From assembly GCA_027487995.1 (NCBI GenBank), contig JAIYCN010000233.1:16168-80167 (forward strand): a stretch of 64,000 nucleotides of DNA. Reading direction: 5' to 3'. Positions 45,995 through 64,000 of the stretch are shown in pieces (the first letter of the stretch is position 1; every line of letters starts with the position of its first letter). The position numbers and the translations under genes were made by a program. The DNA is from Rubrivivax sp. GTDB lineage: Bacteria; Pseudomonadota; Gammaproteobacteria; Burkholderiales; Burkholderiaceae_C. The notes below the pieces were generated by a model, which searched no databases, was not told the DNA's origin, and saw only the letters and a program-made list of their open reading frames with translations.

Positions 45995-46717
45995 TCAAGA
46001 CGTTCCCAAGTGCCCAGATCGACCGACGGTCAATCTAATATTTGCCACGCCTTCGACTCGACCCTCAACATGATCTCCCGGGAGCAGTGGTCCTACTCCC
46101 TCGGGAGTCCCCGTGTAAATGATGTCGCCAGGCTGCAGGTGGTAATAAAGGGACAGATCAGAAATGATCTCTCGGATGTTCCAAATGAGATTGCTCACAT
46201 CGGACTTCTGCTTGACCTCGCCGTTAACCTCTAGCTCGATCTCGCCTTGCTCGATGACGACGCCGGGCATGGGCACTACTTCTGAGCAGACAGAGCCGTC
46301 CTCAATATCTTTGCCAAGGTCCCAGGGTCGCCCCTTGTCGCGTGCGATCAGTTGCAGGTCGCGCCGCGTCATGTCCAGACCACAGGCATAGCCAAAGATC
46401 AGCTCATGCGCTCGCTCGGTGGGCACCCGAAACCCCGACTTGCCGATGACCAACACGAGTTCCATTTCATAGTGGTAGTTGTTGGTTTCAGGCGGGTAGG
46501 CCACCGTGGCGCCACTCGGCACCAGGGTCTGAGGAGACTTGGTGAAGTAGAAGGCGCGCTCAGTTGCCTTATCGACGGGGCGGCCCATCTCCACCGCGTG
46601 GGCATGGTAGTTACGGCCCACGCAGAAGATGCGATTGACCGGTAGATGCTCATGGTGGCCGCGCACCGGAAGGCTGGCGACGGGGGGCGGGTTCCAAAGG
46701 TAGGTGGTTGCGGTCAT
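45995..46717 (-). CDS. fumarylacetoacetate hydrolase family protein (paralogue of 31595-32311)
   Basis: The 240-aa ORF is roughly 80% identical by eye to the first copy. It has more A/T at third codon positions. Confidence 0.85.
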   Translation of the reverse strand: MTATTYLWNPPPVASLPVRGHHEHLPVNRIFCVGRNYHAHAVEMGRPVDKATERAFYFTKSPQTLVPSGATVAYPPETNNYHYEMELVLVIGKSGFRVPTERAHELIFGYACGLDMTRRDLQLIARDKGRPWDLGKDIEDGSVCSEVVPMPGVVIEQGEIELEVNGEVKQKSDVSNLIWNIREIISDLSLYYHLQPGDIIYTGTPEGVGPLLPGDHVEGRVEGVANIRLTVGRSGHLGTS

Positions 46718-46726
46718 GGGCGGCTG

Positions 46727-47833
46727 TCAGCTGCGGACTTCATAGACACCGAGCTTTCGGTGCAGTGGCGACTCGTCGGCGACGAAGAGGAACGCGGGTT
46801 CCGTGGTCGAGCGATTGGTCAGCGTCACGGCCTCATAGCCGGGCGTGCAGCAGGTGTCGGCTTCTGCCAGGGTGAATGTGTGCTCGGTTACCGCCAAATC
46901 TACGCGCCCTTCGATAACGTGGAATACCTGCGAAGGTGAGCGTGCGGGCAGCCGAAGCTGCTGAGCAGGGCGCAGCATCATCGCGTAGTAGCCCAGGTTG
47001 TTTTGTATGTGGTACCCGGTATCGGGGTTCACATAGGTGACCTGCACACAAGTCAGGCTTGGCTGGGTTTGCGCAAGCGCCTCCAGCGCGGCTCGCGCCT
47101 CCCGCCACGGATAGCGCAGCATCGGGTACTCAGCGCGGCCTCGCTCGAAGTAGGACGTGGGCACCAACCCGCCGTGCAGGTACACCTCGTCTCCGCGGCC
47201 GGTTTGCACAGTCTGGCGCTGACCTTCCACAGCGTACGAAACCTCCGAGTAGTACATCAGGGGCAAATCCAGCACATCAAGCCATACAACTGGGTCACTG
47301 CCACTGTGCTCGTGCTCGTGCCATTGCCCAGTGGGCGTCAGGATCAGGTCACCGCGCTCCATGGGGCACTTTTCGCCATTGACCGTGGTGGTAGCGCCGT
47401 GCCCCTCGACGATCATGCGCACCGCATTGGGCGTATGGCGGTGGGCGGGTGCCCACTCACCCGGCAGCAACAATTGCATGCCCAAGTACATGGCCGGACT
47501 GGCCTTCATGTTTTCAAGCCCATGGCCCGGATTGGCCAGCACCAATACACGGCGCTCGGCCTTGTGCATGGGAGTGAGCTCACCCGCCTGCATCAATAGG
47601 GGCTTGAGGGTGGTGTAGGGCCAGTGAGTGGGCCGGGTATTCCGGCTGGGGACCTGGGGCGGTAGCACCGAACGCAGGTTGGGCCACAGGGGCACCAGGT
47701 TCAGCCGGGTCAGTTGGTCGCGGTAGTCCTGCGGGAGGTCCTCAAGTCGTCCAAGTTCATGCACGTGTTGCCCTCCCCTCGCTGACCATACTGCCCAGTG
47801 AAACCGGTCTTCAAATCGTCCGAGTTCATGCAT
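46727..47833 (-). CDS. gentisate 1,2-dioxygenase (second copy)
   Basis: This bicupin is collinear with 32365-33405. The homologous start is the GTG at 47764 (VHELGRLEDLPQDYRD). The ATG at 47833 adds 23 codons created by a tandem duplication. Confidence 0.85.
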   Translation of the reverse strand: MHELGRFEDRFHWAVWSARGGQHVHELGRLEDLPQDYRDQLTRLNLVPLWPNLRSVLPPQVPSRNTRPTHWPYTTLKPLLMQAGELTPMHKAERRVLVLANPGHGLENMKASPAMYLGMQLLLPGEWAPAHRHTPNAVRMIVEGHGATTTVNGEKCPMERGDLILTPTGQWHEHEHSGSDPVVWLDVLDLPLMYYSEVSYAVEGQRQTVQTGRGDEVYLHGGLVPTSYFERGRAEYPMLRYPWREARAALEALAQTQPSLTCVQVTYVNPDTGYHIQNNLGYYAMMLRPAQQLRLPARSPSQVFHVIEGRVDLAVTEHTFTLAEADTCCTPGYEAVTLTNRSTTEPAFLFVADESPLHRKLGVYEVRS

Positions 47834-50934: not shown

Positions 50935-52239
50935 ATGAAGGATTCACCCACTGTCCGATCGGTGCCCGCGCCCGCCGACAAGAACACCACGCCGTGGCGC
51001 GTCGTGGTGATGTGTGCGCTGTTGATGATGCTGGACGGCTACGACCTTTCGGTCATGGGCTTGGCTCTGCCTGCAGTCGCACAAGCGTGGTCGCTCGAGC
51101 CCTCTGCCTTCCGATGGGCGCTGTCGGCCTCCCTCGTAGGGGTGGGCGTCGGCTCGGTGCTCGCCGGCCTGCTGGGCGATCGCTTCGGCCGCAAGACGAC
51201 CCTGCTGGGCATGTTCAGCTTTGGTGGGGCAGTCAGTTTGGCCACCATGAGCACCACCAGCATCGATCAACTGGTCATCTGGCGTTTCCTGGTGGGCGTA
51301 GGGATGGGCGGTGCGATCCCGAACGTCATCGCACTCGTCAGTGAGCTGGTTCCTGAAAAGAGGCGCAATCTGATGGTCGTGGTGGTCTACAGCGGCGCGG
51401 CCCTCGGTGGAGCGATGGGCAGTCTGCTCGCTTCGGTGGTGATACCGGCCTACGGATGGCCCTCCGTATTCCTCTTTGGTGGCGCCGCGCCGCTTCTGTT
51501 GGCCGTGGTGGCGTGGCGCGTGATTCCAGAGTCGCCGGCCTTCCTGTTGGCAAGGCAGACTGCCAAGAAGGCGGCCGCCCTCTCATTGGGCAGTGAGCCC
51601 CACACGGATCCATCGCGAGAGGCTCAATCGGGCGTTTTGGCGCTCTTCCAAGAGGGCCGCACCCGGACGACCCTGCTGCTGTGGGTGCTGTTCATCTGCA
51701 CCCAAGCGATGGTGTTCTTTGTGCAGAGTTGGTACGTCACGCTCTTGGAGCGCAGCGGAATACCGTTGGATGGCGTCCTGCGGACGTTCTCGCTGTGGGA
51801 CTTCGGTGCCCTCATCGGCGGTGTGGCTGTGGCCGCGCTGTCGAGTCGAATGCCGCTGGAGCGACTGCTCGCGGTGGCTTACCTGGCGGCAGCTGCCTGC
51901 TTGGTGTCACTAGGACAGATACAAAACTTGTCCATCATCACCAGCATCGTGACGTTCCTGACCGGCTTCTCCGTTGTAGGTGCATCACTATGCCTGGGTG
52001 CCTTGGCTGCAAGCCACTACCCACCGGCCATTCGTGCCTCCGGCGTGGGTCTGGGTTTGGGTGTAGGGCGCGTGGGTGCAGTGCTCAGCCCGCTGTTGGC
52101 GGGGTCGGCGTTGTCGGCGGGATGGAGCAATGCTCAGATCTTTTCTGCCGCCGTTGCGCCGGCAATCGTGGCGGCCTTGGCCGTCATCGCCCTGGCCACC
52201 ACACGACGTGCGCCGTCCACACCATCGCAATTCGAGTAG
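50935..52239 (+). CDS. MFS transporter, aromatic acid:H+ symporter-like
   Basis: The 434-aa ORF has about 12 TM segments. LDGYDLSVMG...GLLGDRFGRKTTL is typical of PcaK/MhbT-type transporters. Confidence 0.85.
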   Translation: MKDSPTVRSVPAPADKNTTPWRVVVMCALLMMLDGYDLSVMGLALPAVAQAWSLEPSAFRWALSASLVGVGVGSVLAGLLGDRFGRKTTLLGMFSFGGAVSLATMSTTSIDQLVIWRFLVGVGMGGAIPNVIALVSELVPEKRRNLMVVVVYSGAALGGAMGSLLASVVIPAYGWPSVFLFGGAAPLLLAVVAWRVIPESPAFLLARQTAKKAAALSLGSEPHTDPSREAQSGVLALFQEGRTRTTLLLWVLFICTQAMVFFVQSWYVTLLERSGIPLDGVLRTFSLWDFGALIGGVAVAALSSRMPLERLLAVAYLAAAACLVSLGQIQNLSIITSIVTFLTGFSVVGASLCLGALAASHYPPAIRASGVGLGLGVGRVGAVLSPLLAGSALSAGWSNAQIFSAAVAPAIVAALAVIALATTRRAPSTPSQFE

Positions 52240-52247: not shown

Positions 52248-53945
52248 ATGAGCATCCCATCTGTTGGCCGATTGGCTCTGCTGTGCCTCGCGCTGACGGG
52301 CATGGCCAGCGCCGCCCATGCTCTTCGTTTCACTGAGGCACCCAAGGTATCGCAGAACCCCAACCCGCGCGCGCCCCTGGCTGCCGTGTTAACGGTGGCG
52401 ACCGACAAGGCCGCCGCCATTGAAGTCGCCATGGACGATGGGCGCGACCAGTGGACCCTGCGCTTTAAACCCGGCAGCCCATCGGCACAGCTACCCATCG
52501 TGGGTATGCGCCCAGGCATCGAACATCGCTTGACGGTGACCGCCATAGGCACCGATGGCGCCCGCGCGCAGGCTGGCGAAGTGCTGCGCTACCGCCCACC
52601 GCCCCTACCTTCGGACGCGCTGGAGTTCCCCCGACTGCAAGTGCATCGAGTGGAGCCCACTCAGATGGAGCCAGGCATTACTCTGGCCACCGTACGTCGC
52701 CGCGCACTGGGTCGCTCAGAGTTGATGACAGCAGCGCAGCGGCAATTCACCGTGGGCTGGGCGCTCATCCTGGGGCTCAATAGCCGCGGGGAAGTCGTCT
52801 GGTACTACCGATCGGACTCCCGCATTTCCGGCGTGGCCACGCTAGCCAATGGCAACATCTTTTTCCACACGGCGCAGTTCAGCCCAGTGGAGATCGACGT
52901 CCTGGGCAATGAAGTGCGACGTTGGGGAGCCGCAAAAGGCCCGCGCCCAATGCCGCCGCGGTCCATACCCGTGGACGCAGTGACGCTGCACCATCAGCCC
53001 GAGGAAATGCCCAATGGCAACTTCCTTTCGCTTGAGGCCGTGCCGCGTGTCATCGAGAACTACTACACCAGCGAACACGATGCCCGTGCACCGCGCGCCA
53101 CTCAAACGGTGATGGGGGACCGGATCATCGAGTTCACGCCGGAAGGCCGCGTCGTTTGGACTTGGGATGCCTTCGACTACTTGGATCCCTTCAAGATCGG
53201 GTTTGACACCTTCTGGTCCTACTGGACGGTACGGGGCTTTCCGGGTGCGGTGGACTGGACCCATGGCAACGGCGTGCACCATGACGCCCGCGACGACTCG
53301 GTACTCGTGTCTTTCCGTAATCTGGATGCCGTCATCAAGATCGACCGCAAGACCAAGGCGATCAAATGGATCCTGTCGCGGGATGTGGGTTGGTCACCCG
53401 CGCTGCGGCAGAAGCTGCTCAGGCCGGTGGGCGAGAACTTCCAGTACCCCAGTCATCAGCACAACCCTCGGGTGACGCCCGACGGACACATCGTTGTCTT
53501 CAACAACAACGTACACCAAGCCATACCCTTCACAGGTGAGGTATCCAAGCCAGCCAGCGAATCCTTCAGCAACGCACTGGTCTACGAGATCGACGATAAG
53601 GCCATGACGGCACGCGTCACCTTCGCCACGCCGATGCGCGGCGACGTATCGTGCAACTCGTTTGCGATGGGCGATGCCCATGTGCTGCCCAAGACGCGTA
53701 ATGTGCTGGTGGCCTTCTCCCTGTGCTTCCCTGGGTTGACCATCGAGACATGGGACCAGCGGGATCGCAGCAAGGTTTATGCGGACGACCTGCCTTCATC
53801 GCCCCGGATTCGCGAATTCAGGAAGTCAGATCCACTCAAGCCGGTGCTGGACATTGAGTTTCAACCGGCACATCAGATCTACCAGCTGGAGGTCTTCGGG
53901 GTTCACCGCGTACCCTCGCTGCTCCTGGGGAACGCGCATCCCTGA
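52248..53945 (+). CDS. periplasmic aryl-sulfate sulfotransferase (ASST family)
   Basis: I take MSIPSVGRLALLCLALTGMASAAHA (signal peptide) as the start, inside ORF 51681-53945. The sequence ...VDWTHGNGVHHDARDDSVLVSFRNLDAVIKIDRKTKAIKWIL is ASST beta-propeller-like. Confidence 0.75.
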   Translation: MSIPSVGRLALLCLALTGMASAAHALRFTEAPKVSQNPNPRAPLAAVLTVATDKAAAIEVAMDDGRDQWTLRFKPGSPSAQLPIVGMRPGIEHRLTVTAIGTDGARAQAGEVLRYRPPPLPSDALEFPRLQVHRVEPTQMEPGITLATVRRRALGRSELMTAAQRQFTVGWALILGLNSRGEVVWYYRSDSRISGVATLANGNIFFHTAQFSPVEIDVLGNEVRRWGAAKGPRPMPPRSIPVDAVTLHHQPEEMPNGNFLSLEAVPRVIENYYTSEHDARAPRATQTVMGDRIIEFTPEGRVVWTWDAFDYLDPFKIGFDTFWSYWTVRGFPGAVDWTHGNGVHHDARDDSVLVSFRNLDAVIKIDRKTKAIKWILSRDVGWSPALRQKLLRPVGENFQYPSHQHNPRVTPDGHIVVFNNNVHQAIPFTGEVSKPASESFSNALVYEIDDKAMTARVTFATPMRGDVSCNSFAMGDAHVLPKTRNVLVAFSLCFPGLTIETWDQRDRSKVYADDLPSSPRIREFRKSDPLKPVLDIEFQPAHQIYQLEVFGVHRVPSLLLGNAHP

Positions 53946-53984: not shown

Positions 53985-54485
53985 TCAGCCCCCGATGAGT
54001 TCGAGCGTGAAGCCCTGTGCGTCGCGTATGTAGGCCACACGCCGGCCTGCGAAGGGCCCCCCGGTCAGCGGCTGAATACCACCGGCCACATCGAATCCCC
54101 ACGCAGCAGCCCGGTCGATCACATCCTGCACCGATTCCACGTCAAGTGCCAAGTGGGCCGCGCCAATGTCACATGGCCTAGGCGCACGCGTGGTCGCCGA
54201 GTCCGGTGCGCTGTATTCCAACAGCTCCACCACCGCGCCGCAAGGTGAGGTGACCATCACCACTCGGGCCGCGGCATCGGCTATCCCCGTGATGGTCGGC
54301 AGGGTTGGCCCAGGCGGAATTTGTCGCACGGGCGCCGAGGTGAAACCCAATACCTCCACAAGGAAGGACACCATGTGCTCGAGTCGGTGCACCGTCATCC
54401 CGGTGTGAATGATGCGCCGCACGGGTAGCCCTGCGGCTGACGAAAACTCAAGGGGGTTACCCGACTGGAGGCCCGAATGGATCAT
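53985..54485 (-). CDS. VOC (glyoxalase/extradiol dioxygenase) family protein
   Basis: The 166-aa ORF contains ...IIHTGMTVHRLEHMVSFLVEVLGF...HLALDVESV. Confidence 0.7.
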   Translation of the reverse strand: MIHSGLQSGNPLEFSSAAGLPVRRIIHTGMTVHRLEHMVSFLVEVLGFTSAPVRQIPPGPTLPTITGIADAAARVVMVTSPCGAVVELLEYSAPDSATTRAPRPCDIGAAHLALDVESVQDVIDRAAAWGFDVAGGIQPLTGGPFAGRRVAYIRDAQGFTLELIGG

Positions 54486-54498: not shown

Positions 54499-55677
54499 TC
54501 ACTGCAGGCTGACCGTGAGAGGGTCGTAGGGGTAGAGCCACTCGTTGCGTGACTTGGCGATGTTCCGGTCGTGGAAGGCCTGCCGCATTTCCTGCGCGTT
54601 ATCGATTTGGTAGAGACTGCCCATTTCAGAGGACTCTCGAACGATCCTCGTGGTGCGCGGGGCGCGGTGCTCGTGATAAGTCTTTAAAGCCTGCGAAAGG
54701 TTCAGGTTCGGCCCGTCCAAGACTCGTGTGAGCACGGCGGCGTCTTCGATGGCCATGGCTGCGCCCTGCGCCATATAGGGCAAGGTGGAGTGCACTGCGT
54801 CTCCCAACAGGGTCACACGTTCGGTGCTCCACACCGTGGCGGGTTCGCGGCTGTTGAGCGCCCATCGATAGCACTGATCCCTGTCTGCGGATTCGATCAC
54901 TGCGCGGACCATCGGATGCCAACCGGTGTAGTCGTCGCTCAACTCCTGCCAGGGGCGCGCCGAAGTCCAGGACTCCTCCTCCCACGGGCGCGCCATGCAA
55001 CCCACAAAGTTCAGAAGACGACCACCCCTCAGGTAGTACATCACCCCGTGATTGCGAGGCCCGCACCACACCGTGGATACCACTGGCGGACGTTGATCCA
55101 CAGCAATGCGTTCAGTGGGCACCGTTACGCGCCACGCCACTTGGCCGGTGAAGACCGGCTTGTCGGCACCCAAGACATGCTGCCGAACGACTGACTTCAC
55201 GCCATCGGCCCCCACGACCAGATCCGCCTTGAAGGTTCGACCGTCGCTGGTGGTGACCGCCGCACCGTTTGCATCCTCATGCACGGACTGCACCCGGCAA
55301 TTGAGTTCGATCGCACCGGGCTGCCGCATCAGCACCGTGTCGACCAGGGCAGCATGAAGGTCCACTCGGTGCATCTGGTAATAGCAGGCACCATGGCGCT
55401 CCAAGTGCGAGATGCCAAGAGGAATGCGGTGGAGAAGTTCCCCGGTATTGAATCGGCGGAACTCGAAGGCCTCAGGCTTGACACCCTTCGCCTCAAGTGT
55501 GGGCTCGACACCGACCGCCTTGAGTACCTTGACGGCATTGGCACTCATCTGGATACCGGCCCCCACCTCACCCAGCTGGGACGCCTGCTCCAACACCCGG
55601 ACCCGATAGCCCTTGGCCAAAAGCAAGGAGGCCGCCGTCAGTCCTCCGATCCCGGCCCCCACGATCACGATGTCCAT
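54499..55677 (-). CDS. FAD-dependent aromatic-ring hydroxylase (salicylate / 3-hydroxybenzoate hydroxylase-like)
   Basis: I take MDIVIVGAGIGGLTAA as the start. The LLGDAVHSTLPYMAQGAAMAIEDA motif is present. Confidence 0.85.
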   Translation of the reverse strand: MDIVIVGAGIGGLTAASLLLAKGYRVRVLEQASQLGEVGAGIQMSANAVKVLKAVGVEPTLEAKGVKPEAFEFRRFNTGELLHRIPLGISHLERHGACYYQMHRVDLHAALVDTVLMRQPGAIELNCRVQSVHEDANGAAVTTSDGRTFKADLVVGADGVKSVVRQHVLGADKPVFTGQVAWRVTVPTERIAVDQRPPVVSTVWCGPRNHGVMYYLRGGRLLNFVGCMARPWEEESWTSARPWQELSDDYTGWHPMVRAVIESADRDQCYRWALNSREPATVWSTERVTLLGDAVHSTLPYMAQGAAMAIEDAAVLTRVLDGPNLNLSQALKTYHEHRAPRTTRIVRESSEMGSLYQIDNAQEMRQAFHDRNIAKSRNEWLYPYDPLTVSLQ

Positions 55678-55832
55678 CGAAGCGCGCCTGTCTGCCCAAC
55701 CGGGCCTTTCCATTGATGATGAAACGGTCAGAGTCGACCTAGTGTTGCTTCATTATCAATGGAATTGCTCAAAGTGCAAATCCCATGGCATGGCCATGTG
55801 GAGCGATGCAAGGCCTGTAAGGCGCGGTGACG

Positions 55833-56588
55833 CTACGCGGCGGGAAGGTGTCCGAAACTCTCGGAGATCGCCTTTGCAGCCGCGCGCAACTCAGGGACGA
55901 TGCGTTGAAGCACCTCGTCACCCATGCGGGACTTCGGCCCTCTGACGATCAGACAGGCCTGCACTTCACCAAGGCGGGAGAAGATCGGAGCGGCAATGGC
56001 GCGGATGCCCATGACGTTCTCCTCGTCATCCAAAGCCCACCCTTGGGTCTTGGCGCGCGCAACTTCGGCGCGCAACTTGTCGGGCGTTCGAATCGTCCGC
56101 TCCGTCAACGCTGGCAAACCTCCCAGCAGTAACTGGTCGAACAGGGCCTGAGGCCCCCACGCCAGCATCAGCTTGCCCGATGCAGTGCAATGCAGCGACT
56201 CGGCGTCCCCCACAGCGGCGGTCACACGCATGGCCTGGCGGCTCTCCAGCGCGCTGACCACCACGACCTCGGTGCCACGCCGAACACTGATCATCAGGGT
56301 TTCGTCACACAGGTCGCGCAGTTTGAGCATCCACGGCAATCCGACCTCGGCAATCGGTGCCTCACGCAAGTTGTGACTTGCCAAGCTGATCAGGCCCGGG
56401 CCCAGCCGAAAACGCCGAGTCACAGGGTCCTGAACCACGAATTCCTCGGCCGCCAGCGTCCTGAGCAGGCGGTGTGCGATCACCTTGTCCATATCAAGCA
56501 TGCGCCCGATCTCGCTGGCACCTAGATCGTCAACGCCGGGCTTGAACTGCTTGAGGATGAGGAGCGCCTTGGCAACGGTCTTGCTCAT
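55833..56588 (-). CDS. IclR family transcriptional regulator
   Basis: I take MSKTVAKALLILKQF as the start. An N-terminal HTH is followed by an IclR effector domain. It is divergent from the E1 operon. Confidence 0.85.
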   Translation of the reverse strand: MSKTVAKALLILKQFKPGVDDLGASEIGRMLDMDKVIAHRLLRTLAAEEFVVQDPVTRRFRLGPGLISLASHNLREAPIAEVGLPWMLKLRDLCDETLMISVRRGTEVVVVSALESRQAMRVTAAVGDAESLHCTASGKLMLAWGPQALFDQLLLGGLPALTERTIRTPDKLRAEVARAKTQGWALDDEENVMGIRAIAAPIFSRLGEVQACLIVRGPKSRMGDEVLQRIVPELRAAAKAISESFGHLPAA

Positions 56589-56759
56589 GGTCACTTTCTT
56601 GGGCTGGTCATCCGCACATCGTAACCATAGTTGCAACGTTTCGCTTGCATATCTTGAGTTATCGGATGAGTGAGTGGTCGGTGTTAACGATATATATCTT
56701 TTAGAAACGTCGGTTGCTATATTTGCACCCTATTGAACGCATCTCCACAAGGTTCAGAC

Positions 56760-57767
56760 ATGTCATCACCGCCATCGACCGACGCTATCAACGCAGGCGA
56801 GCCCTCTGGCGGCGCGTTGTTGGCCATGTATGAGCGGATGCTGCTGATCCGCCGGACGGAAGAGAGGCTGGGAGCCGACTTCAAGGCGGGCGAGTTGATC
56901 GCCGGCGTACACCTTTACAGCGGCCAAGAGGCCGTGGCGGTTGGCGTGTGCCACCACTTGAGCGACCGCGACTGGATCGCCAGCACCCATCGTGGACACG
57001 GCCACTTTCTTGCGAAGGGCGGCGATCTGCCAGCCATGATGGCGGAGATCCACGCCAAGGCCACGGGTGTGTGCAAGGGTATGGGTGGCACCATGCACGT
57101 CGCCGATTTCTCGCGCGGAATCCTGGGTGCTAACGGGATCGTAGGGGGAGGCGTGAGCCTCATCTGCGGTGCCGCCTACTCCGAGCACCTCAAGGGCGAC
57201 GGTCATGTGGCCGTGGTGTTCTTCGGCGACGGCGCCAGCACTCAAGGTGTGGTGTCCGAGGCCTTGAACTTGGCCGCGCTGTGGAAGTTGCCGATGCTGT
57301 TCGTCTGCGAGAACAACCGGTTCTCGGAGTTTTCGGCCACCTCCACCGTCGTGGCCGGCGAGATTGCCGACCGCGCCGCACCGTACGGCGTGCCTGCTTG
57401 TGTGGTCGATGGCAACGACGTGAATGAGGTGTGGGAGGCCGCACGGCGGGCAGTCGCCCGGGCGCGATCCGGCCAGGGCCCCACCCTCATTGAGGCCATG
57501 ACGTACCGCCTGTCCGGTCACGTGGAGGCTGAAACGGGTTTCCTTCAAGGTGCTCGCTACCGAGAGGCTGCCGAAGTGGAGGAGTGGATCGAGCGTGACC
57601 CGCTGCGGCGTTCGGCACAGGTGCTCCAGGCCCGCGGCATAGCCGTGGCGGCTGACATAGATGCGATCGAAGCGCGTGTCATGGATGCGGTTGAGAGGGC
57701 CGTCGAGTTCGCCAAGAACAGCCCGCCCCCGCCTGATACGCAGGCGCTTGAGTTCGTCTACGCCTAA
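56760..57767 (+). CDS. TPP-dependent 2-oxoacid/acetoin-type dehydrogenase E1 alpha subunit
   Basis: It has the YSGQEAVAVG...HRGHGH and GDGASTQG...CENN TPP motifs. I chose the ATG at 56760; the ORF track starts at the TTG at 56733. Confidence 0.85.
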   Translation: MSSPPSTDAINAGEPSGGALLAMYERMLLIRRTEERLGADFKAGELIAGVHLYSGQEAVAVGVCHHLSDRDWIASTHRGHGHFLAKGGDLPAMMAEIHAKATGVCKGMGGTMHVADFSRGILGANGIVGGGVSLICGAAYSEHLKGDGHVAVVFFGDGASTQGVVSEALNLAALWKLPMLFVCENNRFSEFSATSTVVAGEIADRAAPYGVPACVVDGNDVNEVWEAARRAVARARSGQGPTLIEAMTYRLSGHVEAETGFLQGARYREAAEVEEWIERDPLRRSAQVLQARGIAVAADIDAIEARVMDAVERAVEFAKNSPPPPDTQALEFVYA

Positions 57768-57795
57768 CGGCCCCTTTTTCCTTCGAGACCTCGAT

Positions 57796-58773
57796 ATGGC
57801 CAAACGCCGCCTCATTCAAGCGATCAACGATGCCCTGGTAGAAGAGATGACGCGCGACGAACGCGTCATCCTCTTCGGTGAAGACGTCGAGATCAGCCTC
57901 TTTGGGGACACACGCGGCTTGTCTGAGCGCTTCGGTCCCACTCGAATCCGAAACACCCCGATCTGCGAAACCTTGATCACCGGAATGGCCCTGGGGGCTG
58001 CCGCCGCTGGCCATCGCGTCGTGGCCCACATGATGTTCGCCAACTTCGTTTACACGGGGTTTGACTCGATCGCCAATCAGGCGGCCAAGCTGCGCTACAT
58101 GACCGGTGGTCAGGCTAGGCTGCCGGTGACCTATGTGGCGGCCTATGGAGGCGGCAAGTCCATCGCAGCCCACCACTCGGATACGCCCTACCCGATGCTG
58201 ATGAACCTCAGCGGAATCCAGGTGGTGGTGCCATCGACCCCGGCAGACGCCAAGGGCTTGATGAAGGCGTGTATCCGTGGTGACAACCCGAGTTTCTTCC
58301 TGGAAGCCGGTGGGCGGGGGGGCGAGATGGGTGACGTGCCGGACGAGGACTTCGTCATCCCGCTCGGGCAAGCCGCGGTGCGGCGCGAGGGAGGTGACGT
58401 AACGGTGGTCGCCATCGGCTCGATGGTCAAGCTGGCTCTGCAAGCCGCACAACTGGAGTACGAAACCAGTGGGCTGAACGCAGAAGTGATCGATCCCCGA
58501 ACCCTGGTTCCGCTGGACATCGGATCGATCGTGAAGTCGGTGCAAAAGACAGGTCGCCTGGTGATCGTCGACGAATCGCGCGACTGCTGCAGTGCGGCCA
58601 GCCACATCGCAGCAGTCGTAGCCGATGAGGCCTTCGAATCCTTGAAGGCCCCCATCAAGCGAGTCACGGTTCCCGACGTGCCCATGCCGTATGCCCCCAA
58701 TCTTGAAAAGCTGGTGATGCCCAGCGTTCCCCGCATTCAAGCCGCCATCACGGCGGTTACCCGTCAACTTTGA
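57796..58773 (+). CDS. E1 beta subunit (transketolase-like pyrimidine-binding / C-terminal domains)
   Basis: I take MAKRRLIQAINDALVEEMTRDERVILFGEDV as the start, inside ORF 57661-58773. Confidence 0.85.
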   Translation: MAKRRLIQAINDALVEEMTRDERVILFGEDVEISLFGDTRGLSERFGPTRIRNTPICETLITGMALGAAAAGHRVVAHMMFANFVYTGFDSIANQAAKLRYMTGGQARLPVTYVAAYGGGKSIAAHHSDTPYPMLMNLSGIQVVVPSTPADAKGLMKACIRGDNPSFFLEAGGRGGEMGDVPDEDFVIPLGQAAVRREGGDVTVVAIGSMVKLALQAAQLEYETSGLNAEVIDPRTLVPLDIGSIVKSVQKTGRLVIVDESRDCCSAASHIAAVVADEAFESLKAPIKRVTVPDVPMPYAPNLEKLVMPSVPRIQAAITAVTRQL

Positions 58774-58780
58774 GGATCAC

Positions 58781-59032
58781 GTGAAGGTCAATCTCAAGCT
58801 CTCCCGCGTCGGCATGAACATGGAGTCGGCCACCATCAGCCAATGGCATAAGTCTCCGGGCCAGCGCTTCGCGAAGGGCGAGGCGCTGTACGACATCGAA
58901 AGCGAAAAGGTGACGATGGAGATTGAAGCTCCCTGCGACGGTCTGCTCCTTTCAATTGCTGTTGCTGCCGGAAGCGACGTCAACGTCGGCGATACCGTTT
59001 GCACCATCGACAACAACCCGGCTGCATCATGA
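58781..59032 (+). CDS. free-standing lipoyl/biotinyl-attachment domain protein (83 aa)
   Basis: It has a GTG start with GAGGA upstream. ...GEALYDIESEKVTMEIEAPCDGLL carries the lipoyl-lysine context. No E2 catalytic domain follows. Confidence 0.75.
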   Translation: MKVNLKLSRVGMNMESATISQWHKSPGQRFAKGEALYDIESEKVTMEIEAPCDGLLLSIAVAAGSDVNVGDTVCTIDNNPAAS

Positions 59033-60366
59033 ATCAACCCATCGAAAGCGGAGTAACCGCAACCGCTCGGACCGCTGAACTCGCGCAGAGGGCCATGGCG
59101 GTGATGCCTGGGCGCCAAAGCAACCTGCGTGCGAGTCCCGAGCCGGCCGTCTTTATAGAGCGTGGCCTGGGGCAGCGGCTGTGGGACGTGGACGGCCGAG
59201 AGCTCATCGACTTCGCCATCGGCATGGGTCCCGGAATCTGGGGCCATGGTCACCGGGAATATCTGAAGACACTGCACGAGCAACTCGACAAGCTGTTCGT
59301 AATTGCATCCGGCATGCTGCAGACAGCCAATGAGGTGGTCTTGGCGGAGCACATCGTCAAGAACGTACCCTGTGCCGACAAGGTTCGATTTGTGACCACC
59401 GGCTCGGAGGCCGTGCAGATGGTGGTGCGGCTGGCGCGAGCCTATACCGGCCGGCGCCTGTTTGTTCGCTTCGATGGGCATTACCACGGCTGGCTTGACA
59501 ACGTGTTGGGTGGCCGTGCCGACGCAGCCGAAGACGCTCTACCCTTCGCGCGCGAGAACGAGCACGACCCCATGCATACCGAGGGTCGCTCACATCTGGC
59601 CTTCCAGGAGTCGCTCAAGATTCCTTGGAACGACGCAGATGCACTCGAGACTCTGCTCAAGCGATGTGGCCACGAGGTTGCACTGGTGATCATGGAAGGG
59701 GCCATGACCAACGGGGGCTGCTGCCTACCCAAGCCCGGCTATCTGGAGCGGGTGCGGGAACTGTGCACGCAGTACGGCGTGATCTTCTGCATTGATGAGG
59801 TGATCACGGGGTTCCGAATGGGCCTCTCCGGTGCGCAAGGCCATTACGGCGTGACGCCGGATGTATCGAGCTTCGGCAAGGCCATAGCCGGTGGAATGCC
59901 GCTGGCGGCTGTGGCCGGGCGTGAAGACTTGATGGACCTCATCCGCACGAACCGTGTGGTGGGCGCTGGGACTTTCAACGCCGCACCCATGAGCATGGCT
60001 GCTGGCGTGACCACGATGCGAATGCTGGAGCGCGATGAAGGAGCCGTATACCGCCAGATCGATCGCCTCCAAGGCCTGTTCATGCAGGAGTTTCGGCAGC
60101 TCGCCCAACGCCATGGGCACGCCATGTTGATCCAGGGCGTTCGTGGCGTTTTCTGTGGGCACTTCACGGATTTGCAGGTAGCACACACGCCAGCGCAGCT
60201 GGCGGCACATGCCGACCGGCAAAAGGCAGCGCGATTCCGCCTTGCGCTGATTGAAGAAGGTGTGTACCCAGGTCGGGGAGACCGCTACTTCGTGGGTGCG
60301 GGGCTCACCGAAGAAGACCTCGCAGACGGACTGCGACGCATCGACCGGGCCTTGGCCCGTATCTGA
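59029..60366 (+). CDS. class-III (GSA-aminomutase-like) PLP aminotransferase
   Basis: I take MNQPIESGV as the start, in an ATGA overlap. It has the TTGSEAVQ, IDEVITGFR and SFGKAIAGGMP motifs. Confidence 0.85.
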   Translation: MNQPIESGVTATARTAELAQRAMAVMPGRQSNLRASPEPAVFIERGLGQRLWDVDGRELIDFAIGMGPGIWGHGHREYLKTLHEQLDKLFVIASGMLQTANEVVLAEHIVKNVPCADKVRFVTTGSEAVQMVVRLARAYTGRRLFVRFDGHYHGWLDNVLGGRADAAEDALPFARENEHDPMHTEGRSHLAFQESLKIPWNDADALETLLKRCGHEVALVIMEGAMTNGGCCLPKPGYLERVRELCTQYGVIFCIDEVITGFRMGLSGAQGHYGVTPDVSSFGKAIAGGMPLAAVAGREDLMDLIRTNRVVGAGTFNAAPMSMAAGVTTMRMLERDEGAVYRQIDRLQGLFMQEFRQLAQRHGHAMLIQGVRGVFCGHFTDLQVAHTPAQLAAHADRQKAARFRLALIEEGVYPGRGDRYFVGAGLTEEDLADGLRRIDRALARI

Positions 60367-60388
60367 AGGCTTGCTCGCCGCACTGCGC

Positions 60389-61156
60389 ATGGAGATCTTG
60401 CAGCACATGGTGTTCGGCACCGCCGCTGGGCTGCTGATGTACCTGAGCGGAGTGGGCGGCGGCGTTCTGGTGGTGCCATCGCTGATCGTCCTCTTCGGCC
60501 TTGAGCCAGTCTTGGCGGTAGGAACGGCCAGCGTGTTTTCCTTTGTGTTCAAAGTGGGCGCAGGATGGAGCCACGGATGCCGTGGTCATGTGTCAGCAGG
60601 CCTGCTGCGTGTATTCCTACCCGCGGCCTTGGCGGCCTGCACCGCCAGCGCAGTGATGGTGTCTTGGCTGCACAGCACCATGGCTGATCACCAGAGCCTC
60701 GACCTGGTGCTGCAGTGCCTGACCGTCAGTGCTGGCCTGATGGCCTGGATGAGCCTGTATATCAACCGCTGGGAGGTGATGCTGCAGCGGTTGGGATTGC
60801 CTGCCCTGGCAGCCACATCGGGCGCATTGGTAGGCGCCACCGGCACCGGTGGCGGTGTACTGGTCACACCAGCCTTGTTGTCCGTCACATCCGAGTCCGC
60901 CAAGACAGTGGTGGGAACCTCGCTTGTGATCGGCTTGGCGCTTTCAGGCGTCACGAGCCTGGCCTTCGGTTTCCATAACGCCGTGGCTTGGCGCGTGGTT
61001 GTTGCCGTCTGCGCAGGCGGGTTGATCGCTCTGTTGTTCGGCCCTTGGGTCTTTCAAAGGCTAAGCCCCGTTCATATTCGCCGGCTGACATCAACCTTGA
61101 TTGGCCTGGCTCTGCTCGGGCTGGTGTCGCAGATGCTCAAAGCGCATTGGGCTTGA
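60389..61156 (+). CDS. TauE/SafE family sulfite / organosulfonate exporter
   Basis: I take MEILQHMVFG as the start. Two GxGGGxLxxP repeats are present (GVGGGVLVVPSL, GTGGGVLVTPAL) and the protein is multi-TM. Confidence 0.8.
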   Translation: MEILQHMVFGTAAGLLMYLSGVGGGVLVVPSLIVLFGLEPVLAVGTASVFSFVFKVGAGWSHGCRGHVSAGLLRVFLPAALAACTASAVMVSWLHSTMADHQSLDLVLQCLTVSAGLMAWMSLYINRWEVMLQRLGLPALAATSGALVGATGTGGGVLVTPALLSVTSESAKTVVGTSLVIGLALSGVTSLAFGFHNAVAWRVVVAVCAGGLIALLFGPWVFQRLSPVHIRRLTSTLIGLALLGLVSQMLKAHWA

Positions 61157-61165
61157 TTGAGGGAG

Positions 61166-62629
61166 ATGAGCGTGAGCCTTGAACCAGAAGCGACCACCCT
61201 ACCTGTACCGCGAATATTGATCAATGGTGAGTGGCGGGAAGGTGCTGGGGATACGCAGTGGAAGCTGCTGAACCCGGCTACTGAGCAAGCCTTACAAAGT
61301 TACCGCGGAGCCACTTCGCAAGACCTTGATACGGCGCTACTGGCGGCGCAACAAGCACTCAAACCCTGGGGTCAGACGCCCGCCTTTCAGCGCGCGCAAC
61401 TGATCGAACAAGGGCTACAGAAGGTGCTCGGCTCCATCGATGAAATGAGCCGCTGGCTGACGGTCGAGCAGGGCAAAACCCTGGGCGAGTCACGCCTGGA
61501 AATCCAGGTAGCTGTTGAGATGGTGCGTTGGTTCGCACAGGAGGGACGGCGCATCCATGGTCGCACGATCCCCTCGCGCCTTCCGCAGGGCGTGGTCACC
61601 GTCATACCTCGCCCAGCCGGTGTGGCCCTTGCGATCTCCCCATGGAACTACCCAGTCATCCTGTGCGCGCGCAAAGTTGGCGCAGCCTTGGCAGCAGGCT
61701 GCAGCGTCATCGCCAAGTTGCCGGAGGAAACGCCGGTGGCCGTCGGGGCATTTCTGTCGGCGCTCAATCAGGCCCTACCACCGGGCGTACTGCAGGCGGT
61801 GTTCGGAGATGCCAAGGCCCTGTGCTCGCAAGCGATCGCCAGCCCCGTGGTTCGCAACGTGAGCTTCACTGGATCTGTTGCGGTGGGTCGCGCTCTGGCA
61901 CATCAATGCAGCGCCGATTTCAAGCGTGCGACCCTCGAGTTGGGTGGACACGCGCCTGTGATCGTGTGTCGCGACGCACCACTTGAATCTGTGGCCAACC
62001 TGCTGGTTGCCCACAAGCACCGCAATGCTGGGCAGGCCTGCATGGCCCCTTCGCGGCTCTATGTAGACCAGGGCGTGTTGCCTGCCTTCACCGATCACTA
62101 CGTTGCCGCGATGCGTCGACTGCGGGTAGGCAACGGCATCAAGGCCGACATCGACATGGGGCCGGTGCAAAACCACCGGCGCCAGGCGGCGCTCGAGTTC
62201 TTGATCGAGGATGCCCGGTCGCATGGCGCGGACGTGGTGCAGGGTCCGTCTGTTGAGGGCCCAGGCTTCTTCGTACCCCCAACCGTACTGCTGGGCAACA
62301 TGGAGGGTGCTCGGGTTATGCAGGACGAACCTTTCGGGCCGGTTTGCGCGATCCAAGGTTTCTCTACTCTGGATGAAGCCATTGCGCGTGCCAACGCCAG
62401 CCGCCTCGGGCTGGCGGGCTACCTGTTCACCGATAGCGCGTCGATCCAAGCCCGCTGCATGCGCGAATTGGAGGTCGGTGCACTGTCCATCAACAACGTG
62501 ATGGTCTCAATGCCAGAGGCGCCATTCGGTGGGCTCAAGGACAGCGGCTTGGGTGCTGAAAGCGGCATCGAGGGACTGAGCGCCTACCTGGCCCCCATGA
62601 GCGTCCACACCACACCAATAGCGCCTTGA
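61166..62629 (+). CDS. NAD(P)+ aldehyde dehydrogenase (succinate-semialdehyde dehydrogenase-like)
   Basis: It has ELGGHAP and NAGQACMAPSR catalytic motifs. The ATG has GAGGGA upstream. The ORF track starts at 61157. Confidence 0.85.
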   Translation: MSVSLEPEATTLPVPRILINGEWREGAGDTQWKLLNPATEQALQSYRGATSQDLDTALLAAQQALKPWGQTPAFQRAQLIEQGLQKVLGSIDEMSRWLTVEQGKTLGESRLEIQVAVEMVRWFAQEGRRIHGRTIPSRLPQGVVTVIPRPAGVALAISPWNYPVILCARKVGAALAAGCSVIAKLPEETPVAVGAFLSALNQALPPGVLQAVFGDAKALCSQAIASPVVRNVSFTGSVAVGRALAHQCSADFKRATLELGGHAPVIVCRDAPLESVANLLVAHKHRNAGQACMAPSRLYVDQGVLPAFTDHYVAAMRRLRVGNGIKADIDMGPVQNHRRQAALEFLIEDARSHGADVVQGPSVEGPGFFVPPTVLLGNMEGARVMQDEPFGPVCAIQGFSTLDEAIARANASRLGLAGYLFTDSASIQARCMRELEVGALSINNVMVSMPEAPFGGLKDSGLGAESGIEGLSAYLAPMSVHTTPIAP

Positions 62630-62675
62630 CCATGCCCCCGAGTCCTCACGCCTTCTCGTCTGAATGGAGTTTTCG

Positions 62676-63434
62676 ATGAACACCCGCACACGCGTGGCCC
62701 TGATCACAGGGGGTGCCACCGGATTGGGACGCGCCATGGCCGAACGCCTGGCTGCCGATGGTCTGCGCATCGTCATTGGCGACCTTCGCGGTGCGCAGGA
62801 GGCCGCGCAAGCAATCCAGGATCAGCACGGAGTGGACTGCCTGGGCCTGCACATGGACGTGACCGATGCGGTCAGTATTCAAGAGACCGTTGACGCCGCC
62901 GCTTCCCGCTTCGGCGGCATCGACGTGCTCGTGAACAACGCGGCCCTCTTTTCCACCTTGGTCAACCGGCCATTCGATCAATACGACGCTGAAGAATGGA
63001 TGCAGGTCATGCGGGTCAACACGCTCGGACCCTTCCTGTGTGCCAAGGCTGTGGCTCCCCACATGAAGCAGCAGCGCTGGGGCCGCATCATCAACGTAGC
63101 TTCCACATCGGCCCTCAAGGGCCTTGCCAACATGGCGCACTACGTCACCAGCAAGGGAGCGGTCATCACCTTCACCCGTGTGCTGGCTCGGGAACTCGGA
63201 GCCTGGGAGATCACGGCCAACGCCATTGCCCCGGGCCTGACGCTGTCGGACCAGATCCTTCAGAACGATGCCCATGTGCAGCAGTTCGGGGAAGCGATCC
63301 GAAAGTCACGCTCCATCCAGCGCGATGCCTACCCCTCAGATCTGGTCGGCACGGTGAGCTTTCTGGCAGGCGACGATTCGGCCTTCATGACCGGCCAGAC
63401 TCTTTGCGTGGAAGGCGGAGCCGTCTTCGTCTGA
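62676..63434 (+). CDS. SDR family oxidoreductase
   Basis: It has the TGGATGLG, NNAA and YVTSK motifs. The ATG has GGAG upstream. The ORF track starts at 62664. Confidence 0.85.
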   Translation: MNTRTRVALITGGATGLGRAMAERLAADGLRIVIGDLRGAQEAAQAIQDQHGVDCLGLHMDVTDAVSIQETVDAAASRFGGIDVLVNNAALFSTLVNRPFDQYDAEEWMQVMRVNTLGPFLCAKAVAPHMKQQRWGRIINVASTSALKGLANMAHYVTSKGAVITFTRVLARELGAWEITANAIAPGLTLSDQILQNDAHVQQFGEAIRKSRSIQRDAYPSDLVGTVSFLAGDDSAFMTGQTLCVEGGAVFV

Positions 63435-63468
63435 TGGCCTTCCAACTTCATCCAAGGAAGGTCCCGCG

Positions 63469-64000
63469 ATGAGCGCCAAGCCCCTGCGCAATGTCATCTT
63501 CATCATGTGCGACCAGCTGCGCCATGACCACCTTGGGTTCAACGGGCACCCGCACATGTGCACGCCGAACCTGGACAGTCTGGCCCGCCGCTCGACCTTT
63601 TTCAACCATGCCTATGTGCAGGCTGGCGTCTGCGGTCCCAGCCGCATGAGTTACTACACCGGTCGCTATGTGTCTTCACACGGCGTGACCTGGAACAGGG
63701 TGCCCCTATCGGTTTCGCAGCGTACGCTCGGCGATCACTTCCGCGCCGCAGGCCGGGAGTTGCATCTCGTGGGCAAGTCTCATGTGATCCCCGACGTGGA
63801 AGGTCTGGCACGACTGGGCGTAGACAAGGGATCAGCCATCTGGCGCCACGTGGCGGCAGGCGGCTTCAGCGAAATCGACCGTATCGACGGTCATGCGGAG
63901 CCTGGACCTGAGAGTCGATACGGCGACTTCCTTCGGCGCACCGGGTACGCGGGAGACCGGCCTTGGCACGACCACGTTATCAGTGGCGTGAACGAGCAGG
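63469..64000 (+). CDS. sulfatase family protein (N-terminal part; continues beyond the window)
   Basis: My translation is MSAKPLRNVIFIMCDQLRHDHLGF...AGVCGPSRMSYYTGR, which contains the C-x-P-S-R formylglycine motif. It is absent from the ORF track because it is open-ended. Confidence 0.8.
   Translation, partial: MSAKPLRNVIFIMCDQLRHDHLGFNGHPHMCTPNLDSLARRSTFFNHAYVQAGVCGPSRMSYYTGRYVSSHGVTWNRVPLSVSQRTLGDHFRAAGRELHLVGKSHVIPDVEGLARLGVDKGSAIWRHVAAGGFSEIDRIDGHAEPGPESRYGDFLRRTGYAGDRPWHDHVISGVNEQ

Follow-up and report, generated by a model that had tools for sequence, protein, structure and literature searches.

A conserved gene cluster of freshwater bacteria in which E1 alpha and beta subunits are paired with a free-standing lipoyl carrier, and its possible role in the catabolism of sulfated aromatic amines

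The right-hand end of a 64,000-nucleotide stretch of a Rubrivivax sp. contig (JAIYCN010000233.1; the whole stretch is called the window below) carries a genuine cluster of genes, conserved among freshwater bacteria and so far uncharacterised, in which the E1 alpha and beta subunits of a thiamine pyrophosphate (TPP)-dependent enzyme are followed by a small, free-standing lipoyl protein. Domains were called with Pfam and equivalogs with NCBIfam, each score being compared to the cut-off of the model. Eight co-directional genes run on the plus strand from 56733 to beyond the window end at 64000, with an operon-like spacing of −4 to 34 nt. They encode E1 alpha (56733-57767; PF00676, E 5e-74; the likelier ATG start is at 56760), E1 beta (57796-58773; PF02779 and PF02780), a free-standing lipoyl carrier of 83 aa, here called Lip (58781-59032; PF00364, E 3e-14), a class-III, GSAM-like aminotransferase (AT; 59029-60366; PF00202), an anion exporter of the TauE/SafE (TSUP) family (TauE; 60389-61156; PF01925), an NAD(P)-dependent, SSADH-like aldehyde dehydrogenase (ALDH1; 61157-62629; PF00171), a short-chain dehydrogenase/reductase (SDR; 62664-63434; adh_short families) and the 5' part of a putative cytoplasmic formylglycine sulfatase of the Cys type (63469-64000, running past the window end; PF00884). 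The sulfatase start is at 63469 rather than 63466, and its CGPSR motif lies at 63631-63645. The AT start overlaps the Lip stop by 4 nt, and the two genes are translationally coupled. These calls agree with an earlier note made from the letters alone, which had placed the eight genes and a divergent IclR regulator here and had recognised the formylglycine motif. None of the operon proteins is a named enzyme, since no NCBIfam equivalog model reaches its cut-off with any of them.

Searches with Lip and AT returned about 45 related genome and contig loci (referred to by L-numbers), nearly all from freshwater: Limnohabitans, Rubrivivax, Rhodoferax, Ideonella, UKL13-1 and UKL13-2 (genomes from a cyanobacterial co-culture), Sphingomonadaceae and Caulobacteraceae. 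The window itself is matched by freshwater metagenomes, and one Rubrivivax locus comes from the cyanobacterial culture CCAP 1403/21.

The real unit is larger than first described. Together with the genes upstream, the operon belongs to a catabolic island of about 18 kb, of which it forms the right-hand side and which extends from 45995 to beyond 64000. The other arm begins on the minus strand with genes for a fumarylpyruvate-hydrolase-like protein of the FAA-hydrolase family (FAAH copy 1; 45995-46717; PF01557, E 6e-50), a gentisate 1,2-dioxygenase-like bicupin (GDO copy 1; 46727-47833; PF07883) and a TonB-dependent outer-membrane receptor with Plug and beta-barrel domains (48203-50662). On the plus strand follow a transporter of the MFS, of the aromatic acid/H+ symporter type (50935-52239; PF07690), and a homologue of the periplasmic, PAPS-independent aryl-sulfate sulfotransferases (ASST; 52248-53945; PF05935, E 8e-51). 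The minus strand then carries a small glyoxalase-I-like protein of the VOC family (53985-54485; PF00903 and PF13669), a group-A FAD monooxygenase of the 3HB6H or decarboxylative para-hydroxylase type (FADmono1; 54499-55713; PF01494) and the IclR-family regulator (55833-56636; PF09339 and PF01614), which is divergent from the operon and holds the same position in all betaproteobacterial loci that cover it. The divergent control region (56637-56732) contains the conserved box CTTTTAGAAACG at 56698-56709, with a near-copy upstream of the E1 alpha gene in L001, L005 and L025, and a related GTTGCAACG is found at 56630, at the 5' end of the IclR gene. The two could be half-sites of an IclR operator, and CTTTTAGAAACG may serve as operator or promoter. 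A promoter and terminator scan did no better than on shuffled sequence, and Rfam gave no riboswitch or leader RNA in the region, only a tRNA fragment.

The most distinctive part of the operon is the E1 alpha, E1 beta and Lip trio. E1 alpha carries the TPP motif GDG...NN at residues 165-194 and keeps the histidine of the GH(S) loop when compared with human PDHA1 (3EXF), and E1 beta keeps the active-site histidine of 'HHS' when compared with 1UM9. E1 alpha is nearest to the E1 alpha of pyruvate dehydrogenase (PDH), and both subunits are of the PDH/acetoin-dehydrogenase type. Among NCBIfam models Lip matches PRK14875 best, in the N-terminal lipoyl domain of AcoC, covering only positions 5-80 of 372. 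Lipoyl models score 40-68 bits on Lip compared to 25 bits or less for biotin carriers; the domain is lipoyl-like and not biotinyl-like. Its candidate lipoyl-lysine is K43 (codon 58907-58909), which is situated in an IE[ST][ED]K motif and is invariant in 23 sequences. Because the TPP motif and both active-site histidines are kept, the lipoyl-lysine is invariant and the Lip gene is coupled to that of AT, E1 and Lip look competent.

Lip consists of PF00364 only, with neither a PF00198 core nor a peripheral-subunit-binding domain. A tblastn search of the window with two complete E2s and one E3 found no E2 core or E3, the only match being the biotin carrier region of AccB, in line with what the earlier note had stated about the cluster. 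That note had also named an outcome that would overturn its view, namely that the genes are those of an ordinary acetoin or pyruvate dehydrogenase with E2 and E3 encoded just outside the window. The likeness of both E1 subunits to PDH-type E1 and of Lip to the AcoC lipoyl domain agrees with such an arrangement, yet it is extremely unlikely. In contig L009, with 96-98% identity to the window, the next gene after that of the sulfatase encodes a second aldehyde dehydrogenase (ALDH) and not E2 or E3. An E2 core, AcoC hydrolase domain or E3 was likewise found neither in the approximately 45 alpha- and betaproteobacterial genome loci nor in the best 80 metagenomic loci, with flanks of up to 8-10 kb. 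Moreover, the overlap of the Lip stop codon with the AT start and a regulator that is IclR, not AcoR, are at odds with an ordinary dehydrogenase. An alpha/beta hydrolase near the alphaproteobacterial clusters was considered as the other half of a split AcoC and rejected, since it resembles PcaD and reaches only 27-31 bits with PRK14875.

Comparison with known systems leads in the same direction. The acetoin dehydrogenase of Cupriavidus necator and Pseudomonas putida (AcoA/AcoB/AcoC, with or without AcoL) shares with the island a TPP-dependent E1 alpha/beta followed by a lipoyl-bearing partner, as well as an ALDH beside E1, as expected for acyloin cleavage. Some aco clusters have no E3 of their own and use that of the cell. 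The island differs in that the partner is an 83-aa lipoyl domain without the alpha/beta-hydrolase part of AcoC, and in having an IclR regulator next to AT, sulfatase, ASST and ring-cleavage genes, and acetoin is an unlikely substrate. In pathways such as the breakdown of branched-chain amino acids, where PDH or branched-chain 2-oxo-acid dehydrogenase follows a transaminase, E1 likewise acts on the oxo product of an aminotransferase, and the TPP motif and both catalytic histidines are kept in the island E1. However, the island cluster lacks an E2 core, a peripheral-subunit-binding domain and E3, and therefore no multi-enzyme core can form. The H-protein of glycine cleavage may offer an analogy, being a small free lipoyl protein with decarboxylase-type loading and a shared dihydrolipoyl dehydrogenase, but Lip belongs to the E2-type PF00364 and not to GcvH (PF01597), and its loader would be TPP-dependent rather than pyridoxal phosphate (PLP)-dependent.

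A metagenome scan with an alignment of Lip-only sequences gave at least 514 confirmed relatives, the best 80 loci of which were inspected. In this set E1 beta lies directly before the Lip-only gene in 55 of the 58 loci with enough upstream sequence, and the gene 3' of Lip most often encodes an SDR, AT or VOC protein. In view of these counts and the absence of E2, AcoC and E3 from the flanks, the lipoyl-only layout is old, widespread and under selection, and not a truncation artefact. An exhaustive search with Lip itself was dominated by multi-lipoyl E2s, with few stand-alone representatives at 50% clustering, and is unfit for counting.

Among the relatives the lipoyl partner takes three forms, two of which indicate what the lipoyl-only module replaces. 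One is a complete E2 of the PDH type, accompanied by E3 in L026, which occurs in gammaproteobacterial clusters that also hold AT, ALDH, VOC and MFS genes; here L026 (SAR92, 11473-17678) and L029 (3106-12632) have one or two AT copies beside E1 alpha/beta. L026 additionally encodes a class-IV (D-amino-acid/BCAT-type) aminotransferase and a FADmono1 homologue. The AcoC form, a lipoyl domain with a hydrolase fold, is found in Skermanella (L049, Skermanella sp. TT6 plasmid pTT6-1, 5945-13058) in the order IclR / E1a-E1b-AcoC-VOC-amino-acid ABC transporter (slashes separate gene groups here and below, and E1a and E1b stand for the alpha and beta genes). This layout is intermediate between a full aco system and the lipoyl-only form. 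The third architecture, a lipoyl domain only, is that of the alpha and beta lineages and includes cultured Sphingobium plasmids.

A parallel in a cultured organism is on plasmid pSRL1 of Sphingobium indicum B90A (L047, 9397-15872), a degrader of hexachlorocyclohexane, where the E1a-E1b-Lip trio is 62%, 62.5% and 53% identical to that of the window. The order is TetR / AMP-binding-E1 alpha-E1 beta-79-aa 'lipoyl domain-containing protein'-TonB receptor, followed by XdhC, a molybdopterin-binding protein and gorA. Unlike the island, the plasmid locus has no AT, sulfatase or ASST, and its acyl-adenylate-forming enzyme is translationally coupled upstream; a pairing with an AMP-binding gene is also seen in the metagenomic loci L100 and L121. 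The pSRL1 trio is annotated only generically and is uncharacterised.

The three genes downstream of Lip suggested a different role to the earlier note, which saw in them the published logic of nitrogen scavenging from aminosulfonates. In this scheme AT would convert the substrate to a sulfo-aldehyde and ALDH would oxidise it to a sulfo-carboxylate, to be exported via TauE/SafE. It is true that AT, TauE and ALDH1 stand side by side in the window, as in the Tpa-SafD-SafE pathways for taurine and homotaurine, and that the TauE family contains SafE. However, ALDH1 reaches only 245 bits with the SafD model NF047626 (cut-off 700), as compared to 390 bits with the SSADH subfamily (cut-off 646). The AT is GSAM-like: all its NCBIfam models remain below cut-off, the HemL-like one being the highest, and taurine-pyruvate aminotransferase is not among the top models. 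TauE and ALDH1 are the least constant part of the cluster, being absent from 10 covered loci (L005, L012, L013, L017-19, L021-24), and only about one in two of the related loci has TauE at all. L023 and L024, which are without TauE, carry a SulP permease, as does L063. The scheme also leaves the conserved partners ASST, sulfatase, E1/Lip, FADmono and the dioxygenase, among them sulfate-ester and aromatic catabolic enzymes, without a role. The taurine/homotaurine analogy is unsupported because there is no sulfonate-cleaving enzyme and ALDH1 is far from SafD, and aminosulfonate scavenging is considered very unlikely. Mining of gene neighbourhoods, as the note had proposed, showed that E1a-E1b-Lip-AT recurs in every betaproteobacterial locus covering it, but without TauE as a constant partner.

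For TauE, a role in the efflux of sulfate or sulfite is proposed instead, and both TauE and SulP would best be read as outlets for sulfate released in the cytoplasm. In UKL13-2 (L023; complete genome CP012157) the cluster with SulP is bounded by the housekeeping genes mutY, rapZ and hprK. The relatives of AT in the Protein Data Bank (PDB) are GSAM, 4ZM3/4ZM4 (deposited only as 'Aminotransferase' and presumably PctV), D-phenylglycine aminotransferase and beta-Phe aminotransferase. The AT family comprises more than 100 clusters at 50% identity or more, every one of them environmental, and the plasmid database holds no close AT relative (identity 42% or less). The GSAM-like character of AT together with the glyoxalase-type VOC protein led to consideration of 5-aminolevulinate as the AT substrate, which was set aside as it leaves E1/Lip, ASST and the dioxygenase unexplained.

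Two kinds of putative desulfating enzyme are encoded on the island. The full-length sulfatase orthologue in L009 has 532 aa, carries the CxPxR motif and matches the S. pomeroyi sulfatase-family structures 4UPL (E 1e-141) and 4UPI (E 1e-139); no signal peptide is apparent on reading the sequence. Neither FGE nor anSME for sulfatase maturation was found in the window. In the alphaproteobacterial locus L036 (12451-15254), an Erythrobacter-like contig binned as Synechococcus, AT-MFS is followed by an FGE-family protein and a group-II PLP decarboxylase, and no sulfatase is visible within that locus. The SDR gene always adjoins that of the sulfatase in relatives (L005, L009, L011-13, L017-19, L021-25, L038, L051, L058-59). 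Its top model is pyridoxal 4-dehydrogenase (224 bits, cut-off 325), and an exact-sequence look-up of the window SDR gave no match. Degradation of vitamin B6 (pyridoxamine), which this model brings to mind, was set aside for the same reason as 5-aminolevulinate.

The ASST homologue is very divergent from E. coli AssT (3ELQ), with about 130 residues aligned at 73 bits. Nevertheless, a profile alignment places AssT His356 opposite H337, Arg374 opposite an Arg and the sulfo-histidine His436 opposite H403 of the window protein, and the equivalents of H337 and H403 are invariant in 5 homologues. The N-terminus, MSIPSVGRLALLCLALTGMASAAHA, reads as a signal peptide. Neither AssT nor 4UPI/4UPL has a known physiological substrate or a comparable catabolic operon context. 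The ASST gene is directly 3' of AT in most betaproteobacterial loci and accompanies AT in L042 (TonB-ADH-GntR-MFS-ALDH-VOC-AT-AT-ASST-VOC), in L043 (8571-13368), where ASST-TctCBA is divergent from an AT with 54% identity, and in L046, a deltaproteobacterial metagenome-assembled genome with the order ASST-TctCBA-AT. In L043 the AT gene is followed by genes for a B12-binding protein and a URO-D-type methyltransferase, a pair that looks like a corrinoid O-demethylase system. In L041 AT occurs with a sulfatase fragment and VOC. The ASST residues, the CGPSR sulfatase, the replacement of TauE by SulP, the FGE in L036 and the association of AT with ASST argue for a sulfate ester and not a sulfonate. 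Thus, from the suggestion in the earlier note of an undescribed route for a sulfonated or sulfated compound, the ester link and the lack of a published description stand, and the sulfonate falls away.

An aromatic substrate is suggested by the likeness of the MFS transporter, the relatives of FADmono1, the gentisate-type dioxygenase and the likeness of an ALDH in the alpha lineage, which is closest to phenylacetaldehyde dehydrogenase. The MFS protein scores 300 bits with TIGR00895, whose cut-off of 418.55 is not reached, with MhpT and PcaK next; its orthologues lie directly 3' of AT in L017-L019, L023 and L024. FADmono1 scores 307 bits with PRK08163 (cut-off 459), and its nearest solved relatives are 8GSM (deposited as '4-hydroxybenzoate decarboxylase'), NicC, 3HB6H (4BJY) and the decarboxylative vanillate 1-hydroxylase. 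Orthologues with 72-76% identity adjoin IclR in the betaproteobacterial loci, and those in the gammaproteobacterial L026 and in L091 have 47-48% identity. GDO scores 242 bits with TIGR02272 (cut-off 442) and is 65-67% identical to the dioxygenase adjoining the cluster in relatives, where FAAH homologues occur in the divergent arm. FADmono1 and GDO are family members and candidate enzymes of a gentisate route. Orthologues of the TonB receptor (67-70% identical) lie between IclR and E1a in L017-L019 and L022, and more distant ones adjoin AT in alpha and gamma loci. In Rubrivivax loci the gentisate arm is flanked by MlrC-like (DUF1485/MlrC_C) and YjgF-family genes (L001, 251-2287).

The VOC protein could act on the side chain. 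H27, E87, H111 and E162 are invariant in 22 homologues, and we read this H/E/H/E set as the metal-site pattern of glyoxalase I. The AlphaFold 2 model has a pLDDT of 81 and its closest PDB folds are of the glyoxalase-I type, with small ring-cleaving VOC dioxygenases such as L-DOPA dioxygenase also among the structure matches. In the alpha, beta and gamma loci the VOC gene nearly always accompanies those for E1, AT and ALDH; a Thalassobaculum homologue has an unrelated gene context. These features fit another explanation, in which a small aliphatic amine is degraded: 1-amino-2-propanol or aminoacetone would be converted to methylglyoxal by AT, to pyruvate by ALDH with VOC as glyoxalase I, and to an acetyl group by E1/Lip, the aromatic and sulfate genes being neighbours with a separate job. 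Such a route needs exactly AT, ALDH, a glyoxalase-I-like VOC protein with the metal site and fold found here, and a PDH-like E1. The compact gammaproteobacterial locus L029 (MFS-ALDH-E2-E1a-E1b-VOC-AT-AT), with an E2 nearest to PDH acetyltransferase, would suit it well. On the other hand, the TonB receptor and the aromatic-acid-type and Tct carboxylate transporters would be odd for small cations, the cell already owns a pyruvate dehydrogenase, and ASST, sulfatase and FADmono follow E1/Lip through several independent gene orders, including that of L091. We regard the small-amine route as unlikely.

The gene orders are central to the interpretation. All betaproteobacterial genome loci that extend over the E1a-E1b-Lip-AT block keep it in synteny, with IclR divergent. 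The remaining genes recur in these loci in altered order: ASST or MFS right after AT, TctBAC, a porin, SDR-sulfatase, a second ALDH and VOC, with FADmono-GDO-FAAH-GST in the other arm. The window has FAAH-GDO-TonB / MFS-ASST / VOC-FADmono-IclR / E1a-E1b-Lip-AT-TauE-ALDH-SDR-sulfatase, and other Rubrivivax and Limnohabitans have IclR-FADmono-GDO-FAAH-GST / E1a-E1b-Lip-AT-ASST-TctBAC-(TauE-ALDH)-porin-SDR-sulfatase. L058 is arranged as IclR / E1a-E1b-Lip-VOC-AT-porin-SDR-ALDH-sulfatase-ASST, and L091 carries on one strand SDR-SDR-ALDH-sulfatase-ALDH-E1a-E1b-Lip-VOC-ASST-FADmono-FAAH-GST-GDO-TonB. That the same functions stay together through such shuffling is the main argument for a single pathway on the island.

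The opposite view is that the island is a mosaic, in which E1/Lip/AT, sulfatase/SDR, TauE/ALDH and the gentisate genes each have a substrate of their own and share no more than a location. The content of the modules does differ between lineages, the island adjoins a cassette-like region where toxin-antitoxin pairs occur along with a truncated integrase and a remnant of a tRNA, and the E1a-E1b-Lip trio is also found with an AMP-binding enzyme on Sphingobium plasmids or with an SDR alone on many soil contigs. Yet the same functions recur in at least four gene orders and in three proteobacterial classes, the genes in the window are spaced as in an operon, and metatranscriptome contigs bridge gene junctions, which makes a mosaic quite improbable. 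Lake metatranscriptome contigs with 93-99% identity cover FADmono1, E1 alpha, AT, TauE, ALDH, SDR and sulfatase, and bridge the AT/TauE and ALDH/SDR junctions, at low depth and with DNA carry-over possible. A full-text literature search gave no description of the cluster, nor of any E1 whose partner is a lipoyl domain only, and annotation pipelines name the parts in generic terms. LarG of Pelobacter, the single match to 'lipoyl carrier protein', was rejected as GcvH-like and unrelated.

From the observed gene content, conserved catalytic residues, synteny and transcription in lakes, we tentatively propose that the island allows freshwater Burkholderiales to degrade a sulfate-esterified phenolic amine or aromatic amino acid, a reading that we rate at a little short of even chances. 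The compound would cross the outer membrane via the TonB receptor, or a porin in relatives. Aryl sulfate could be removed in the periplasm by the ASST homologue, which would pass it to another phenol, and in the cytoplasm through hydrolysis by the formylglycine sulfatase, and the freed sulfate may then leave via TauE or, in some relatives, SulP. Uptake would be by the aromatic-acid-type MFS transporter, with TctABC taking its place in relatives. The class-III AT could convert the amino carbon to a carbonyl, after which SDR, the ALDHs and the glyoxalase-I-like VOC protein would transform the side chain to a 2-oxo acid of the arylglyoxylate type or to an acyloin. C–C cleavage on TPP by E1 alpha/beta would be followed by reductive acylation of free Lip. 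The acyl group might be released by hydrolysis or by a housekeeping E2, and dihydrolipoyl-Lip is assumed to be re-oxidised by a housekeeping E3. The hydroxy-aromatic acid would be hydroxylated by FADmono1, followed by ring opening by the gentisate-type dioxygenase and the hydrolase, both arms being under control of IclR.

Three variants of the central steps can be considered. In variant (a) an arylethanolamine would be converted via a mandelate-type acid to arylglyoxylate and further to aroyl-Lip, which fits because AT, VOC, ALDH and SDR are present and the AT-less L091 has two SDRs. In variant (b) a 1-aryl-2-aminopropanol would give an acyloin that is cleaved to an aryl aldehyde and acetyl-Lip; this fits because E1 and the gammaproteobacterial E2 resemble PDH and acetoin enzymes. 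The third option, variant (c), starts from an aromatic alpha-amino acid, whose oxo acid would be the direct substrate of E1, in agreement with the invariant E1-Lip-AT block and the carboxylate transporters.

Several points weigh against degradation of such a sulfated aromatic compound. Every chemical step as well as the substrate class is inferred. L091 has every function but AT, and therefore the amine may be just one entry point among several. The UKL13-2-type loci L023 and L024 lack ASST and the gentisate genes, as do the alphaproteobacterial loci within the available flanks, so that the aromatic part may be lineage-specific. In L045 (9152-16544; GntR / AT-BKACE-VOC-VOC-TctCBA) an AT with 53% identity neighbours a beta-keto-acid cleavage enzyme (BKACE), which suggests that some members of the AT family act on beta-amino acids, which would not be direct E1 substrates. 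The sulfatase clade sits among promiscuous enzymes of the alkaline phosphatase superfamily, the next PDB matches being phosphonate monoester hydrolases, and members of the TauE family have no fixed substrate. Finally, the gammaproteobacterial E2 is nearest to the acetyl-transferring E2 of PDH and E1 alpha to PDH E1 alpha, which would also suit a small substrate, e.g. pyruvate.

The same enzymes might in principle work in the direction of synthesis, with AT aminating a keto intermediate, ASST sulfating a phenol and E1/Lip providing a C2 unit. E1/E2-like enzymes make glycolyl-ACP in quinocarcin and naphthyridinomycin biosynthesis, lipoyl-dependent E1-like enzymes are used in this manner in some natural-product clusters, and ASSTs are reversible transferases. 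However, genes for acyl carrier protein (ACP), NRPS, PKS or anything else that would build a scaffold are absent from the loci. What they hold instead are genes for uptake (TonB receptor, porin, Tct, MFS), for ring cleavage and for a sulfatase that hydrolyses, and the regulators (IclR, GntR) are of the catabolic type, which leaves biosynthesis with hardly any probability.

If the island is indeed catabolic for sulfated aromatic amines, candidate sources would be sulfo-conjugated arylethanolamines of the octopamine or noradrenaline type, and the amine unit of the Microcystis aeruginoguanidines. The literature search confirmed only that aeruginoguanidines are sulfated Microcystis peptides. We take their amine unit to be a tri-O-sulfated 1-aryl-1-hydroxy-2-propylamine. 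Its degradation would draw on AT, an acyloin-cleaving E1, two ALDHs, SDR and the two kinds of desulfating enzyme, with a decarboxylative hydroxylase providing the step towards gentisate.

The system resembles acetoin and 2-oxo-acid dehydrogenases reduced to E1 and a free lipoyl carrier, on an island that could serve a sulfated aromatic nitrogen compound. Lipoate-dependent oxidative C–C cleavage is taught as the job of giant E1-E2-E3 complexes, and here E2 has shrunk to its swinging-arm domain. More than 500 metagenomic places contain the trio, and it is also carried by plasmids of cultured Sphingobium and by Limnohabitans and other abundant lake bacteria. It could represent a distinct and widespread lipoate system in which E1 would load a diffusible Lip, much as the P-protein of glycine cleavage loads the H-protein, with no dedicated E2 core, employed in this case for a sulfated aromatic amine from lakes, although we consider this combined proposal doubtful. 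If the trio works alone it would be a new mode of lipoate use. The island would further give a genetic handle on the freshwater turnover of sulfated aromatic nitrogen compounds, with release of carbon, nitrogen and sulfur. The bacterioplankton concerned are very common and some are partners of bloom-forming cyanobacteria. Since the cluster is present in isolates, namely Limnohabitans sp. 2KL-51 (L025), Sphingomonadaceae RE-M21a (L035) and Caulobacteraceae RH-10 (L037), the hypothesis is directly testable.

The window contains a second contiguous gentisate-type set at 31595-36416, consisting of FAAH2 (31595-32356), GDO2 (32365-33405) and FADmono2 (33439-34659) on the minus strand, and MarR (34698-35225) and TctC (35400-36416) on the plus strand. 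GDO2 and FAAH2 each share 80% identity with their counterparts on the island (45995-47833), whereas FADmono2 is only 35% identical to FADmono1, and FADmono1 can therefore be regarded as the cluster-specific enzyme. Directly left of the island, at 41800-45550, lies the cassette-like stretch, with a GC dip to 0.57. It holds a RelE/HTH pair (41826-42438), BrnT/BrnA (43768-44296) and a GNAT gene (44478-45002), all on the minus strand, a truncated integrase (45188-45487, plus strand; an N-terminal SAM-like ORF) and the partial tRNA (45477-45533, minus strand; Rfam 34 bits, not called by ARAGORN). Its position at the border of the catabolic island suggests an old integration site. Elsewhere in the window, two large genes look like those of secreted proteases: the one at 11798-14689 encodes a DUF4953 Met-zincin of 963 aa, and the one at 28936-31503 a subtilase of 855 aa that carries an S-layer homology domain. 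A SelO adenylyltransferase gene lies at 27327-29003 on the minus strand.

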